Assembly (NCBI GenBank): GCA_965263035.1
Contig: OZ253580.1
Coordinates: forward strand, 1,088,001 to 1,152,000
Direction of reading: 5' to 3'
Length of the DNA: 64,000 nt
DNA from: Acidobacteriota bacterium
GTDB taxonomy: Bacteria; Acidobacteriota; UBA6911; RPQK01; JAJDTT01
Under the pieces are notes generated by a model. It made no database searches. It worked only from the letters and a program-made list of their open reading frames with translations, and had not been told where the DNA came from. A program made the position numbers and the translations under genes. Shown here one piece after another: positions 36,176 to 41,325 of this stretch (position 1 is the first letter of the stretch; every line of letters begins with the position of its first letter).

Positions 36176-36988
36176 TCAGTCCGGACGAACTTCCTGTTCC
36201 CCCAGCGAGGCCGGCTCCTTGAGCCGATAACGCACATACCGGTAACCCTTCAGAACAACACCGCTGAGAAGGTAACCAGAAGCCATGGCCATCAAAGACT
36301 GTCGGGAATAGAAGAACACGGCGGCCACCATCAAGGCCAGGATCACAACCAGAAGATGAGACTTTCTGCCTCCCAGATTGAGCCGCTTGAACGACGGATA
36401 TCGGACCGTACTGACCATGAGACAGGCCACCGCATAGTTCATGCCGACCAGCGAGACCTTGAAGAAGACCGTATCCGGAGGGGTCTCGAAGTAGTGGATG
36501 ATCGCCGCTACGAAGGCCGCCGCCGCCGGGATGGGCAGACCGGCGAAATATTTCATCTCCTTCAACTCGACGTTGTACCGGGCCAGACGCACTGTTCCGC
36601 AGATGAAGAAGAAGAAGGCCGAAAAACGGGCGAAATTGCCCAGGTCGGCCAGCCCCCAGGAATAAATGAGCACCGCCGGAGCGATCCCGAAACTGACCAC
36701 GTCGGCCAGGGAGTCCAACTGGACGCCGAAATCGCTGGTGGCATTGGCGAGTCGTGCCACACGACCGTCCAGTCCGTCCAGGATCACGGCGATCCCGATG
36801 GCGACCGCCGCCGCCTGGAAGTTCTCGTTGAGTATGGATACGAGGGCGAAGAAGCCCGCGAACATGTTCCCCACGGTGAAGAGCGAAGGCAGGATGAAGA
36901 CGCTACGGCGAAATCGCCGCCTGGGGGGCCCGGAAGCCGGGAATTGGCGTTGGTTACGTCTTAACTTGCTCACGGCCCGGGGTTCCAA
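36176..36988 (-). CDS. pssA: CDP-diacylglycerol--serine O-phosphatidyltransferase
   Basis: D.LDG.VAR...S.FG.QLDSLAD, RLARYN, F.GLP.P motifs. Start position uncertain. Confidence 0.9.
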   Translation of the reverse strand: MEPRAVSKLRRNQRQFPASGPPRRRFRRSVFILPSLFTVGNMFAGFFALVSILNENFQAAAVAIGIAVILDGLDGRVARLANATSDFGVQLDSLADVVSFGIAPAVLIYSWGLADLGNFARFSAFFFFICGTVRLARYNVELKEMKYFAGLPIPAAAAFVAAIIHYFETPPDTVFFKVSLVGMNYAVACLMVSTVRYPSFKRLNLGGRKSHLLVVILALMVAAVFFYSRQSLMAMASGYLLSGVVLKGYRYVRYRLKEPASLGEQEVRPD

Positions 36989-37575
36989 TACGCCAGGACG
37001 GTGCTGCCGCCGTAGACTCGATCGCCTTCGCTGACAACCATGTCACAACTCCGTGGGAGGAACATATCGACCCGGCTGCCGAATCGGATCAGGCCTATTC
37101 TATCACCCCTGCCGACCACGTCTCCCTCATTCTTCCAGACCCGGATTCGGCGCGCCAGGATCCCGGCCACCAACGCGAAGGTCAGGGGCCGGTCCCCGGA
37201 AATGGTGAGAATGACCCGTTCGTTCTCCACCGAAGCCCGATCGTCCCAGGCGAGATGAAACCGCCCGGAGCGGTGTTCCTTCCGGACCAGGATACCCTCC
37301 ACGGGTGAACGATTGACGTGCACGTTCCATATCGAAAGGAAAATGCTGACCTCGGTGCCCTCCTCAAACGGTTTCACACGAACGATTTTTCCGTCCGCCG
37401 GGCTGACCACGGCGGCGGGATCATCAGGAATGGAACGGTTCGGATCGCGGAAAAAGTAGGCGACGAAAGCCGCTAGAACCAACGTCACCACGCCCAGGGC
37501 CACTACCTGGAGCCAAGTCAGGACCAAGGTCAATGCGACTAGTGGAAGAAAGAAGTAGTATCCGTCTCGGGCCAT
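36970..37575 (-). CDS. psd: Phosphatidylserine decarboxylase (short type)
   Basis: FFRDP, SPADG, NVHVNR.P, NER and FGSRVD self-cleavage motifs. Confidence 0.92.
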   Translation of the reverse strand: MARDGYYFFLPLVALTLVLTWLQVVALGVVTLVLAAFVAYFFRDPNRSIPDDPAAVVSPADGKIVRVKPFEEGTEVSIFLSIWNVHVNRSPVEGILVRKEHRSGRFHLAWDDRASVENERVILTISGDRPLTFALVAGILARRIRVWKNEGDVVGRGDRIGLIRFGSRVDMFLPRSCDMVVSEGDRVYGGSTVLAYWNPGP

Positions 37576-37674
37576 AGGCGCATGCTCCGGACTCCGGCCG
37601 GGAGTCGACTCCAGATCGGGGTCCCCGGCACGACACGGGGCTCTTGCCAGGAAGGCATTCCCAGCCTGGACTGG

Positions 37675-37833
37675 GAGCCTACGCGGCAGAAATTGATCTA
37701 CTGCGAAAGCGGTAGAATCGGTCCATATTTCCCCGATTTCTCGGCGAATAGAACAACTATGCACCTCCAAATCGAGAAAATCTAGCCTCGATTCCCCGCT
37801 TTCTCGCTACGATCATTCCTACCGCGCAGACTC
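37675..37833 (-). mobile_element. MITE family B, copy 2
   Basis: Near-identical reverse copy of 19673-19831; flanks CTGG / CTAG. Confidence 0.9.
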
Positions 37834-37885
37834 CTAGGAGGCTGTCCGAGAATGGAGCCGTCACCGACGCTTGTCTGTTTAAATA

Positions 37886-38051
37886 GGCCCGTCCGGGTCG
37901 CTCATGAGCGACCCGGACGGCGGTGGCTGGACCGTACCGACGCGGACTGTTAGGAACCGTTTGGGAGTGAGGTCGGCCACCGTCTTTCCCGATGTCCTGA
38001 ATGGATACAAGGGCATCAAGGCCCGAATGACAAGCACAGGAGACAGGAAAG
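37886..38051 (+). ncRNA. IS110 bridge RNA (5' hairpin, target-binding loop, donor-binding loop); ends approximate
   Basis: 32-bp perfect palindrome 37889-37920. Target guides ACCGACGC (37936-43) and TTGGGAG (37961-67). Donor guides ATGGATAC (38001-08) and GACAAG (38029-34). Each pair lies in the internal loop of a closed stem. Confidence 0.85.
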
Positions 38052-38996
38052 ATGAAACAGCATACCGTAGGCATCGACATCTCGAAAGCGCACCTGGACG
38101 CGCACCGGCTGGCCGACGGCCATTCCGCCCAGTTCGACAATGACCCGGCCGGCTTCCGGGCGCTGATCGATTGGATCGGAACTCCGGTCGAGTGCGTCGC
38201 CTACGAGGCCACCGGCCCCTACCACCGGGACCTCGAGGAAGCGCTGTCCAAAGCGAAGCTACCGTTGGCCAAGGTGAACCCCTGGCAGGCCCGATGTTTC
38301 GCCCGGGCGACCGGGAGCCGTGCCAAGACCGACGCCGTAGACGCTCGGAAACTGGCCCAGATGGCCGCCAGCCTGGATCCGCGCCGGACCCCGGCCCCGT
38401 CCAAAACGCAACGCCGGCTCCAGGAACTGCAGTCGGCCCGGGACGCGCTGATCCGCCAGCGCACGGCCCTGCTCAACCGCCGCCAACAGCTCCGCGAACC
38501 CTTGCTCAAACAGCAGAACCAGACCCAGATCAACATGTTCGAGCGCCACCTGCGCGCCATCGACCGCAAAATGCAGCAGCTGATTGCGGCCGACGAGGCG
38601 CGGGCCCGCAAGTTGGAGATCCTCACCTCCATTCCCGGGATCGCGGCCACCACCGCCGGTCTGCTGGCCGAGATGCCCGAGCTGGGCGCCCTCAGCGGCA
38701 AGGCCGCCGCCAGTCTGGCCGGGCTGGCCGCCGTTCCCCGCGAGTCCGGGACTTGGCAGGGCCGGGCGTTCATCCGGGGCGGACGGGCGCGGGCGCGACG
38801 GCTCCTGTACATGCCGACGGTGGCCGCCCTGCGCTGGAACCCCGACTTGGCCGAGGTGTACCGGAGGCTGAGAGAGCGCGGCAAGCCCGGCAAGGTGGCC
38901 CTCGTCGCCGTCATGCGCAAGCTCATCGTCCTGGCCAACACCCTCGTCCGGCAGGACCGCACCTGGTTGCCCGTAGCGCCCCGAGCGACCTTCTGA
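38052..38996 (+). CDS. IS110-family DEDD recombinase/transposase
   Basis: GIDISK, YEATG, KTD.VD (DEDD tetrad); SIPGI, ESG (catalytic Ser), RGGR, MRKL. Confidence 0.95.
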   Translation: MKQHTVGIDISKAHLDAHRLADGHSAQFDNDPAGFRALIDWIGTPVECVAYEATGPYHRDLEEALSKAKLPLAKVNPWQARCFARATGSRAKTDAVDARKLAQMAASLDPRRTPAPSKTQRRLQELQSARDALIRQRTALLNRRQQLREPLLKQQNQTQINMFERHLRAIDRKMQQLIAADEARARKLEILTSIPGIAATTAGLLAEMPELGALSGKAAASLAGLAAVPRESGTWQGRAFIRGGRARARRLLYMPTVAALRWNPDLAEVYRRLRERGKPGKVALVAVMRKLIVLANTLVRQDRTWLPVAPRATF

Positions 38997-39016
38997 GGCC
39001 ACGGAGAGACCCCGTG

Positions 39017-39256
39017 AGGAAAGGGAGCGTGTGGACCCCCTGATGGCCGTCTGTCGAACTTCCGGTCAGGTCTGGCCGGAAGCTTGCTTACGGCCATGAA
39101 AGCTCTTCAGGGCGTATCCGGACCTCCCGGAGGACTGACGTCGACGATCTCAGGCCCCTCGATCCAGTTGATCCGTCCACTCATCGCCCCCTCCACGGCG
39201 CCCGCTGGATCCAGCTCGATCTCCGCCTCACCTCTGGCGGAAGAACGCTCCTCCTA
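39017..39256. ncRNA. Candidate structured RNA in the IS110 right end
   Basis: Nested stems GGAGCGT/ACGCTCC, GTGGAC/GTCCAC, ATGGCCGT/ACGGCCAT and CTTCCGGTCAG/CTGGCCGGAAG; no credible ORF. Confidence 0.45.
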
Positions 39257-39384
39257 ACCCTGTGCCTCTTGGACCGGACAGATCACGTACTAACGACACG
39301 GGATGGAAACACCGATTAGCACCCACCACTTGCAACATGGATACTCCCTAAAATAAGGGGAACAGATCATCAGGAGAGTGTCGG

Positions 39385-40902
39385 ATGCCCCCTCGCTTCA
39401 AAGCCTACCCGAAAGATTACTACCAGAGTCAGCTGTTTCCAGCTAACGTATTCGACTTGTTGCCGGAGGATCACGAGTGTTTCCTCTACCGGGATCTGTT
39501 TCGGCAGCTGGACACGACGGAAGTGGAGGCCCGGTACAGCCACCGGGGTCAGCGGGCCTACGCGCCGCGCCAGATCGTTTCGATCCTGATCTACGCCTAC
39601 AGTCACGGCGTGTACAGCTCGCGACAGATCGAGCAGCGCTGCCGGGAAGATCTCGGCTTCATGTACCTGGCGGGGAGGAACTGCCCGAACTTCCGGGTGT
39701 TGAGCGATTTCCGGAAGGACCGCGGGGAGTTCTTCCGGTCCTGTTTCAAGCAGACGGTGGAGTTGGCGATGGGGCTGGGGCTGGGGCTGGTGAGTTTGGG
39801 ACACGTGAGCCTGGACGGGTCCAAGTTCAAGGCGAACAGCTCGAAGCACAAGGCGATGAGTTACGGACGACTGAAGGAGAAGGAGAAGGAGCAGGAGTTG
39901 TGCGAGGAGATCGAGGCCTTGACCCGACAGGCCGATCGCTGCGACGAGCAAGAGGATCGAGCCTACGCGGAGCGGACCGGGTATGAGTTGCCGGAGGAAC
40001 TGCGCGACAAGCAGCAGCGGTTGCAGAAGATCCGGGAGACGAAACAGTCGCTGGAAGCGCGGGAGGCAAAGCTTCGACCGGGTCGGGAGATCGAGGACAA
40101 GAAGCAGCTCAGCTTTGCGGACCCCGAGGCGCGGATCATGAAGCAAAAAGGGGGGTTCGAGTACGCGTACAACGCGCAGATCAGCGTGGAGGAGACATCG
40201 CAGGTGATCGTGGGTCAGCACGTGAGCCAGCAGGCGAACGATTCCCAGGAGGTGGCTCGGGCGCTGGATGAGATGGAGGAGACGAGCGGTCGGTTGCCGG
40301 AGAAGCTGAGCCTGGACAACGGCTACTATTCGGGAAAGAACCTGCAGGAGGTGTCCGATCGTCAGGTGGAAGCGTACCTGGCGACGGACCGGGGCGAGCG
40401 GCGGGGGAAGGGAGAGCTGGAGGAGAGTGAGCGTCGGCTGGTGAAAGCGGACTTTCGTTACGACGGGGAGCGGGACGGGTTTCATTGTCCCGGCGGCCAA
40501 CTGCTGAGGTTGAAGACCCCCCGCGGCACGGGACAGCGGGTGTATCAGGGGGACATCGAGGAGTGCCGATCCTGTGCCTACTATCGTCGGTGCTGCCGGT
40601 CGAAGTCAGGGGCGGCGCGCACGATCACGAGCGACGGGAAGGAGCCGTTGCGACGGGCGATGAACGAGCGGATGTCGAAACCGGAGAGCCGAGCGCTCTA
40701 CGCGCGTCGCAAGACGATCGTCGAGCCGGTATTCGGGCAGATCAAGAACTCGGGATTTCGGGGATTCGGGCTGCGGGGCAAGGAGAAAGTGGCCGGGGAG
40801 TTCTCCTTGGTCTGCGTGGCGCACAATCTCAAAAAGATCATGCTTGCGGCTCTGCGGGGAGAGGTGTGTCCGGAGTTCGGGAAGCGAGCGGCCTGGGCGT
40901 AA
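39385..40902 (+). CDS. IS1182-family DDE transposase
   Basis: LLPEDH, YAY..G.YSSR.IE, DGSK.KAN.S, DPEAR.M, YNAQ, D.GY, R...VEPVFG.IK motifs. Confidence 0.93.
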   Translation: MPPRFKAYPKDYYQSQLFPANVFDLLPEDHECFLYRDLFRQLDTTEVEARYSHRGQRAYAPRQIVSILIYAYSHGVYSSRQIEQRCREDLGFMYLAGRNCPNFRVLSDFRKDRGEFFRSCFKQTVELAMGLGLGLVSLGHVSLDGSKFKANSSKHKAMSYGRLKEKEKEQELCEEIEALTRQADRCDEQEDRAYAERTGYELPEELRDKQQRLQKIRETKQSLEAREAKLRPGREIEDKKQLSFADPEARIMKQKGGFEYAYNAQISVEETSQVIVGQHVSQQANDSQEVARALDEMEETSGRLPEKLSLDNGYYSGKNLQEVSDRQVEAYLATDRGERRGKGELEESERRLVKADFRYDGERDGFHCPGGQLLRLKTPRGTGQRVYQGDIEECRSCAYYRRCCRSKSGAARTITSDGKEPLRRAMNERMSKPESRALYARRKTIVEPVFGQIKNSGFRGFGLRGKEKVAGEFSLVCVAHNLKKIMLAALRGEVCPEFGKRAAWA

Positions 40903-41094
40903 AAAAGGGGCGGATAAGGGCGGATGAAGTCAAAAATCGGCCGCTGTAGCCTCTTTCCGAGTCGGAATTAGAGCAGCCCATCGATTCCTTCGGCTCCGGA
41001 GGCCAGGCTTCGAGGGTCTTCGGAGCCTTGGGCCATTGCCCCTGAGCATGGTTACGGGTGAAGGTCACTCAATGTCGAGTTCTCGGACAGCCTC

Positions 41095-41325
41095 CTAGCC
41101 AGTCTGGACCTCCATCTGGTGTCGATGGATGATGACCTGCATCTGGTCCTTCAAGGCCAGCTTCTTTTTTTTGATGACGCTCTCACGCATCTTCTCTTCC
41201 GGGTTCAGGTAGACCTTGCGAACGAGCTCCTCCAGTTGGCGTTCGTACCCCTGATGCTCCAAGGCGAGCCGCGAAAACTCCTTGTCCGTTTCCATCAGAT
41301 GATTCTTGAGAGCGGCTTCATCCAT
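41095..41325 (-). CDS. DUF465/YdcH-family small coiled-coil protein
   Basis: EF..L..EH..Y...L...KKKKL.LKD pattern; its TAG stop is the IS target duplication. Confidence 0.8.
   Translation of the reverse strand: MDEAALKNHLMETDKEFSRLALEHQGYERQLEELVRKVYLNPEEKMRESVIKKKKLALKDQMQVIIHRHQMEVQTG

Follow-up and report, generated by a model that had tools for sequence, protein, structure and literature searches.

A putative IS621-type bridge RNA, and a possible one-base change of target class, in an IS110-group element inserted into an IS1182-family element of an Acidobacteriota genome

IS621 of Escherichia coli, with a 177-nt bridge RNA and solved structures (PDB 8wt6-8wt9), is the described insertion sequence whose organization most resembles that of the IS110-family element examined here, which lies at 37872-39343 of a 64,000-nt window from an Acidobacteriota bacterium (the window being the whole stretch of DNA analyzed, contig OZ253580.1, positions 1,088,001 to 1,152,000). 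Published accounts of this group (PMC11208160, PMC11208158) already cover bridge RNAs, the guide code, guide-target covariation over thousands of elements, REP (repetitive extragenic palindromic) targeting, handshake guides, and junction promoters; bridge RNAs were predicted in 85.7% of the IS110-group elements in ISfinder (PMC11208160). The mechanism class is established (Durrant 2024; Hiraizumi 2024), and the element described below adds no new principle to it.

Other described systems share single traits with this locus. ISPpu10 and ISPpu9 of Pseudomonas putida are IS110 elements inserted in REP sequences, with the left target in the 3′ arm of a target-encoded stem-loop (bioRxiv 10.64898/2026.03.19.712850). 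ISCro4 (PDB 9t56), compared at the level of the recombinase, has a similar protein sequence. Elements of the IS1111 group carry their guide RNA in the right end and have long sub-terminal repeats, whereas the element in the window belongs to the IS110 group and has a left-end RNA. Partridge and Hall reportedly described, in 2003, an IS1111-group element of the IS110 family that targets the end of another mobile element. That kind of specific target is shared by our element, although it is inserted 18 bp inward of the host's inverted repeat, whereas theirs is within the repeat. In a literature search, we came across no account of IS1182 ends as targets of an IS110 element; the element itself may already be included in the ortholog lists published by Durrant 2024 and in the IS622/ISCro4 preprint.

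The element, its left-end RNA, and its recombinase

Judging from its sequence, 37872-39343 is very likely an intact IS110-group insertion sequence whose left end encodes an IS621-type bridge RNA that acts with the DEDD/Ser recombinase encoded downstream. The element and its host consist of the following features.

37872-39343, + strand: body of the IS110-family element (1472 bp; 13 genomic copies have exactly these ends)
37863-37871, + strand: left target half ACCGACG (37863-69) and left copy of the CT core (37870-71)
37872-37876, + strand: right donor half TGTCT, the left terminus of the element (CT plus TGTC pairs with the right donor guide)
38052-38996, + strand: recombinase gene, 314 aa, with DEDD RuvC-like and Tnp domains
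38997-39343, + strand: right non-coding end, 347 nt, including the -35-like TTGCAA (39330-35) and the left donor half
39337-39343, + strand: left donor half ATGGATA, the right terminus of the element
39344-39350, + strand: right copy of the CT core (39344-45) and right target half CCCTA (39346-50)
37834-37852, + strand: left 19-bp terminal inverted repeat of the host IS1182-family element (100% complementary to 41080-41098)
39385-40902, + strand: transposase gene of the IS1182-family host, whose right inverted repeat is at 41080-41098

The junctions, the target (ACCGACG-CT-CCCTA), and the donor (ATGGATA-CT-TGTCT) that an initial annotation had reconstructed from the window all lie where it placed them, and the CT core is present at both junctions in 12 of the 12 full genomic copies. 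The element is without terminal inverted repeats (none of the seven inverted-repeat pairs listed joins its two termini). A 3-bp sub-terminal inverted repeat (GTT at 37877-79, AAC at 39334-36) brackets the 14-bp donor; short sub-terminal repeats of 2-3 bp around the donor are described for the IS110 group (PMC11208160). Every defining IS110-group feature that can be tested by sequence is present, except a left end exceeding the right end. In a profile search, the host transposase matched NF033551 at 403 bits, and the IS110 element sits 18 bp inside the left IS1182 repeat and 40 bp upstream of the ATG of the IS1182 transposase gene.

The 180-nt left end of the element comprises a 5′ hairpin and two internal-loop stems, the loops of which hold a left and a right target guide (LTG, RTG) and a left and a right donor guide (LDG, RDG).

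37889-37920, + strand: 5′ stem-loop of the bridge RNA, 14 GC-rich pairs with a 4-nt loop (a perfect 32-nt palindrome; 16-nt arms, 100% complementary, 0 nt between)
37922-37981, + strand: target-binding loop module, stem 37922-33 / 37971-81 (fold and alignment)
37936-37943, + strand: LTG ACCGACGC (left target plus C), in the target loop
37960-37967, + strand: RTG TTTGGGAG, in the target loop; includes TTGGGAG (37961-67)
37968-37969, + strand: handshake dinucleotide TG of the target loop
37983-38051, + strand: donor-binding loop module, stem 37983-99 / 38037-51, inner hairpin 38011-24
38001-38008, + strand: LDG ATGGATAC, in the donor loop
38029-38034, + strand: RDG GACAAG, in the donor loop
38035-38036, + strand: handshake dinucleotide CA of the donor loop

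The minimum free energy fold of 37872-38055 consists of exactly three modules (dG -88.7 kcal/mol, z -5.68, 0 of 200 shuffles as good). Folding had been proposed in the initial annotation as a check on its reading of a 32-bp palindrome at 37889-920, two stems, and guides in their loops; the fold recovers the three modules at that z score, and each of the features is present. The architecture to which the annotation assigned the RNA, that of IS621 with a CT core, is likewise borne out by a 5′ hairpin, a target loop, and a donor loop directly upstream of the recombinase gene. The modules follow one another in the order of IS621 and have similar sizes (hairpin ~32 nt, target loop ~60 nt, donor loop ~69 nt), and the left arms of 7 nt and left guides that include the core C are also shared.

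In the window copy, the LTG matches at 8/8 positions, the LDG at 8/8, and the RDG at 6/6. By our own base-composition estimate, the chance of an exact 8-mer within 170 nt is ~0.005 for ACCGACGC and ~0.001 for ATGGATAC, and jointly it is far below 1e-4. Target and donor guides alike follow the strand rules of IS621, in which the LTG is the top-strand left target plus the core C and the RTG is reverse complementary to the core together with the right target (PMC11208158). Read as 9 nt (GTTTGGGAG), the RTG pairs at 7/9 positions of the real site, CTCCCTAAA.

Two further readings of the left end were set aside. The 5′ hairpin is not an intrinsic terminator, as no T run follows it (a terminator scan of 37600-39500 found 0). 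An inner stem-loop between LTG and RTG was left out of the structure; in the window's clade it has only 2-3 bp and its place differs by one column, and it is clear (4-5 bp) in the relatives from genomes G006 and G023. The ribosome-binding region of the recombinase gene (AGGAG at 38038-42, GGAAAG at 38046-51) lies in the 3′ arm of the basal stem of the donor loop, where the folded bridge RNA would occlude it; RNA folding and recombinase translation may therefore exclude each other on one transcript.

The recombinase reading frame is open across all 314 aa. It matched PF01548 (E 5.4e-23, residues 6-146) and PF02371 (E 1.5e-15, residues 189-271) in Pfam, and the NCBIfam model NF033542, "IS110 family RNA-guided transposase," at 199.2 bits against a cutoff of 140. 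Among solved structures, the best match is ISCro4 (9t56; E 3.6e-34, 121.6 bits, residues 3-298). A phmmer alignment to IS621 (8wt6, the chain numbering of which is offset by 2) gave E 1.2e-30 and 110 bits over 296 aa, and it sets D9, E52, D94, D97, and S232-G233 opposite D11, E60, D102, D105, and S241-G242 of IS621. Domain order is the same in the two proteins, and all five catalytic residues align, in agreement with the DEDD plus Ser that the initial annotation had read. In IS621, mutating D11, E60, D102, D105, or S241 abolished recombination (PMC11208158).

By analogy with IS621, the element would excise as a circle joining 39343-CT-37872. A bridge RNA of ~165 nt, roughly 37886-38051, would be made, with transcription probably starting mainly at a promoter that the circle junction restores, for which the -35-like TTGCAA of the right end and the AT-rich block at 37879-85 are candidate parts. 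A recombinase tetramer would then bind the RNA, with the first loop engaging the target and the second engaging the donor junction. The LTG ACCGACGC is predicted to pair with the bottom strand of ACCGACG-C and the RTG, (U)UUGGGAG, with the top strand of CT-CCC; on the joined ends of the excised element, the LDG would pair with ATGGATA-C and the RDG with CT-TGTC. Strand exchange would presumably follow the shared CT, as in the IS621 pathway.

Covariation of guides, targets, and structure

The genome from which the window derives (G000; 6.198 Mb, one contig, ~62% G+C) holds 12 full IS110 copies, another that is truncated on the right, and a remnant of a right end. Of the full copies, three occupy ACCGACG-CT-CCCTA(A/G)A sites in the left ends of IS1182 elements and carry the guide ACCGACGC. 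The other nine occupy (A/G)CCGCCG-CT-C(C/T), in the 3′ arm of a REP-like hairpin (CGGCGG-N7-CCGCCG), and carry ACCGCCGC. Position 5 of the LTG (equivalent to 37940) equals position 5 of the left flank in 12/12 copies (A in 3, C in 9); it is the sole LTG difference among full copies and tracks the split between sites. The LTG matches the left flank at 7/7 positions in 11 of the 12 copies and at 6/7 in the remaining one (c1745803), and the truncated 13th copy pairs ACCGCCGC with an ACCGCCG flank. Donor guides and both termini are invariant among genomic copies. RTG pairing is looser, with the core plus 3 nt matched in 8/12 copies. The REP-type motif ACCGCCGCTCC has 91 unoccupied occurrences in the genome, against ~12 expected from composition, and ~10 that are occupied.

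Several copies show further changes. An insertion of ~78 bp with 20-nt inverted-repeat arms (a hairpin) follows the equivalent of 39109 in the right end of 9/12 copies and of loci L054 and L059 in relatives; one arm holds a near-copy of the IS110 target motif (ACCCGACGCTCCCC), and the insertion is absent from the window copy and two others. The IS1182-site copy at genome 653131 has its reading frame cut (residues 1-272 of 314), and the copy at 4765114 has an altered gene 5′ end, the match beginning at residue 6. At genome 4205100-4205560 (the L022 region), an IS110 right-end remnant adjoins an 89%-identical IS1182 copy; ~380 bp upstream, an inverted second right-end terminus is joined to CT-CCTC, an arrangement that looks like a rearrangement or inversion product.

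A protein search of 41 genomes (40 relatives and G000) yielded matches at E <= 1e-40 in 10/41, G000 included. We examined loci from seven relatives and tabulated the 14 for which the left junction was located, 12 of them with the right junction too.

G007 L037: left flank GTCGCCG, LTG GTCGCCGC
G007 L047: left flank GCCGCCG, LTG GTCGCCGC (one G-U-compatible mismatch)
G007 L054 and L059: left flank ACCGCCG, LTG ACCGCCGC
G004 L038 and L048: left flank GTCGCCG, LTG GTCGCCGC
G001 L039 and L049: left flank CACGCCG, LTG CACGCCGC
G003 L040: left flank GACGCCG, LTG GACGCCGC
G006 and G007 L041, L050, L056, and L064: flanks CGGTATG-CT-CCCTC, LTG (G/A)TGTATGC, RTG GAGGGAG
G023 L042: flanks GGGGTCG-CT-CCCGT, LTG ATGGTCGC, RTG ACGGGAG

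The LTG matches the left flank at 7/7 positions in eight of these 14 loci, at 6/7 in one, and at 5/7 in five distant loci; the five have recombinases 57-60% identical, unrelated targets, and RTG matches of 7/7. The close clade has five LTG variants, each matching its own left flanks, and in G001 and G003 the RTG covaries too (UGGAG with CTCCA). Guide-target covariation across homologues, which the initial annotation had named as a check, is thus positive both within the genome and among relatives. In G001 (L039, L049) and G003 (L040), ~650 nt of extra sequence separate the left terminus from the 5′ hairpin of the RNA, and in L055 (G004) the target-binding loop is split by an insertion of ~1.2 kb.

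Fifteen target-plus-donor modules from seven genomes were aligned; three helices with 29 pairs in total make up the consensus structure, which leaves the guides unpaired. The same alignment, most rows of which are close kin, is the source of that structure. In it, 95.2% of cells are paired, versus 37-57% with partners slid, and six pairs changed on both sides, a number reached by 1 of 500 shuffles. The covariation score is 0.156 versus 0.105 (0 of 500 shuffles). A covariance model built from the alignment finds 13 copies in G000 and no orphan, the source copies matching by construction. At the place of the 5′ stem-loop, loci L041, L064, and L042 have a hairpin of wholly different sequence.

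The matches between loops and flanks could instead be DNA-level features, such as protein-binding repeats near the termini, or stretches of the target copied into the element during insertion, with no RNA guide involved. The first module is indeed a perfect DNA palindrome, and the donor guides are invariant in the clade and so show no covariation. The matching segments, however, occupy loops that stay unpaired in an RNA structure of the coding strand that is conserved and shows compensating changes, and their position 60-160 nt into the element separates them from the flank; they obey the strand rules proven for IS621, and the protein belongs closely to the structural family of enzymes whose structures were solved with such RNAs. 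On this evidence, a DNA-level origin is highly improbable, and a guide RNA of the IS621 type is the reading that we follow below.

Handshake positions, promoter, and right end

In the handshake described for bridge RNAs, the dinucleotide 3′ of the RTG pairs, once strands have been exchanged, with donor positions 6-7, and the dinucleotide 3′ of the RDG with target positions 6-7. Here, UG of the target loop (37968-69) is opposite donor T6-A7, where U pairs with A and G forms a wobble with T; CA of the donor loop (38035-36) is opposite target C6-G7, where C pairs with G and A is mismatched with C. The handshake proposed in the initial annotation therefore stands for the first base of each dinucleotide, and it does not extend to the second bases. 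The first handshake bases are invariant in 15/15 aligned sequences, and target position 7 is G in 26/26 flanks tabulated; four G000 copies have UC in place of UG. Donor position 7 and target position 7 never vary, so these data are consistent with the handshake but add no covariation in its favor. Pairing of the first handshake base with position 7 of the non-cognate DNA is a further likeness to IS621, from which the locus differs in its second handshake positions (unpaired in the donor loop, wobble in the target loop).

A number of observations weigh against a bridge RNA acting as set out above, and several concern the guides. The RTG of the window copy fails to match the real IS1182 site at one position, the fourth base past the core; 4/12 genomic copies have 1-2 mismatches within the core plus 3 nt; and in four G007/G004 loci UGGAG stands against CTCCC, a mismatch at the third base after the core. 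The loose match in genomic copies is in line with the RTG of native IS621, which is described as pairing over only 4 nt, and a short RTG, with the core plus 3 nt reliably paired here, is a likeness between the two. Structure covariation is modest because most of the sequences are close relatives and the structure comes from the same alignment. The UG of the target loop could also wobble-pair with CG of the cognate target, and experiments reported for IS621 found handshake-type pairing with the cognate target to be inhibitory. An Rfam 15 scan of 37400-39600 at E up to 1 found no family at threshold (whether Rfam 15 contains a bridge-RNA model was not checked) and returned only two chance miRNA matches, at 22 bits versus gathering scores of 100-128.

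Evidence on expression and on the right end belongs on the same side. A scan of 37600-39500 found 0 sigma-70-like promoters in the integrated state. TTGCAA (39330-35) ends 1 nt short of the left donor half and is conserved in G000, G007, G004, G001, and G006, with TTGACA in G023, and a circle junction 39343-CT-37872 would set it 17 nt upstream of the AT-rich 37879-84. The -10 candidates at that junction, TTAAAT (spacing 17) and TAAATA (spacing 18), are weak and, by sequence reading, would fail the criteria of the promoter scan; the -10 region there is only AT-rich, and this reading does not establish a clean sigma-70 junction promoter, a point of difference from IS621. RNA libraries cover the left end only by assembled contigs, which cannot show expression. 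In two size-fractionated libraries, summed contig depth over 37883-38065 is above that of the gene (X15, ~2200, 1600, and 290 versus 65-300 on the gene; X16, ~2100, 3300, and 1450 versus 20-110), and X1, of unrecorded library type, has no such step; contig depth cannot rank parts of a gene, and we do not count these values as evidence. No right-end to left-end circle junction is listed among the contigs compared with the element. The right end (347 nt, or 425 nt in 9/12 copies) exceeds the left end of 180 nt, unlike the IS110-group norm. A left end longer than the right is a statistical tendency of the group and no mechanistic requirement, and since relatives in G001, G003, and G006 have right ends of ~70-100 nt, its greater length here is apparently a secondary trait. 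Folding of the right end (38997-39345) gave no sign that it forms another structured RNA (z -0.97, 19 of 100 shuffles as good), and that reading was rejected.

The lineage in IS1182 ends and its meaning

The initial annotation had predicted that IS1182 copies without the IS110 element read the reconstructed target. An unoccupied IS1182 left end at genome 4173833 (- strand) reads ACCGACGCTCCCTAAAATAAGGGG, exactly that target, so the prediction passed there; four full-length empty copies read ACCGAAG-CT-CCTTA instead. These four belong to a 91%-identical subfamily and have two target mismatches, and 0/4 are occupied. They fit guide specificity and are no refutation of it. Occupancy is 4/6 among ACCGACG-bearing IS1182 ends versus 0/4 among ACCGAAG-bearing ones, a contrast that is suggestive only (one-sided exact p ~0.07, hand calculation). 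An IS1182-like remnant at 1954209 reads ACCGACGCTCCCAAAT, which the RTG matches at 8/9, better than the occupied sites. In three other runs, contigs pass directly from 37868/9 to 39344/5, the element being absent; these are weak joins, with sides of 26-36 nt at a likeness threshold of 90, and a variant base is present in two of them.

A further insertion and dispersed repeats were noted around IS1182 in this genome. The copy with the empty target (~4172064-4173820; L024, L027) is split by another insertion of ~1.7 kb that has CCCTAAAATAAGGGG at either edge, perhaps as a 15-bp target duplication. The last 24-26 bp of the IS1182 right end (window 41075-41100), with the 19-bp inverted repeat, have exact solitary copies at at least 20 genome places, and ~19 left-repeat hits reach 37852; the solitary copies may be solo ends or a repeat targeted by IS1182. 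Directly left of the IS1182 left repeat, ~162 bp (37674-37835) form a dispersed repeat with ~165-174 blastn-short hits in the genome. Contigs of all four runs accumulate at this repeat, where coverage dips at the center of the palindrome CTCCTAGGAG. The repeat overlaps the 5′ end of a minus-strand open reading frame (36970-37770), in which the Pfam phosphatidylserine decarboxylase match spans residues 99-259 only.

In a tree of 18 elements (first 1230 nt), the three IS1182-site copies form a clade (87/92) nested in the REP-site copies of G000 (81/87). REP targeting is ancestral, since relatives in all sister genomes target REP-like NNCGCCG-CT-CC. Loci L054 and L059 of G007 combine the RTG of the window copy (TTTGGGAG) with the LTG ACCGCCGC, so the target-loop guides of the window copy differ from a known REP-type loop by a single LTG base. 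The window copy thus belongs to a derived lineage of three copies that has A instead of C at 37940, in the LTG, and lands in IS1182 left ends, not in REP hairpins. Identity to the host in the window is 99%, 89%, and 88% for the other occupied IS1182 copies, and the IS110 parts are 95-99% alike; hosts that have diverged around near-alike IS110 parts imply at least two independent insertions into ACCGACG sites.

We lean slightly toward the view that one A-for-C change at LTG position 5 split the IS110 element into two co-resident lineages with separate target sets, the derived one inserting 40 bp upstream of the IS1182 transposase start and so acting as a parasite, and possibly a silencer, of IS1182. 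The order of events could have been the reverse, with a REP-guided element inserting off target, at one mismatch, into an IS1182 end, the LTG mutation following in compensation, and a composite IS1182::IS110 then spreading by IS1182 transposition. Single mismatches are tolerated naturally (c1745803 and L047, both 6/7), and the host IS1182 in the window and the one at genome 3693744 are 99% identical with different flanks, a pair that may be one composite moved by IS1182. Such a history is nevertheless unlikely, as the occupied IS1182 ends at 651963 and 4203368 are only 88-89% identical with IS110 parts 95-99% alike, which indicates at least two independent insertions; in addition, all 3 full IS1182-site copies carry the matching A, and 4/4 two-mismatch IS1182 ends are empty.

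Whether the window copy still moves is a separate matter, since it might keep the architecture while decaying and inactive. It lacks the 78-bp right-end segment found in 9/12 copies, its RTG mismatches its own site, the sister copy c653131 has a truncated frame (1-272 of 314), and no circle junction was found among the contigs compared. The absence of the 78 bp is no deletion of essential sequence, because this inverted-repeat insertion is also absent from more distant relatives. Set against these points are the open 314-aa frame with all catalytic residues and intact guides, stems, and termini that are identical to those of the sister copy at 3695502. We regard inactivity as rather unlikely.

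Sequence reading of the targets reveals the geometry described for ISPpu10 and ISPpu9. The REP targets read CGGCGG-N7-CCGCCG then CT, the IS1182 site CGTC-ACC-GACG then CT, and the G006 site CATAC-N5-GTATG then CT, each with the left target in a hairpin arm; the IS1182 hairpin differs from those of ISPpu10 and ISPpu9 in having only 4 bp and a 3-nt loop. The REP-type ancestral target is also a likeness to IS621. From IS621, the element is distant in sequence, and it differs in its right end, longer than its left, in the ~62% G+C of its genome, and in that one of its sub-lineages targets another insertion sequence.

The locus provides an annotated bridge recombinase orthologue from a high-G+C, non-enterobacterial genome. 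Its 13 copies with four natural target-loop variants, together with the variants in six other genomes, make up a compact natural set of tolerated or selected guide changes. Within this set, a single-base difference in the guide naturally accompanies a switch of target class, REP sequences giving way to the end of a different insertion sequence. The targets keep the left arm within a hairpin, which bears on the recently proposed recognition of IS110 targets by sequence plus structure. If the two-lineage view is correct, the genome would hold a natural matched guide pair for measuring single-mismatch discrimination, and the same pair would probe what the target hairpin contributes, its stem being 6 bp at REP sites and reduced to 4 bp at the IS1182 site.

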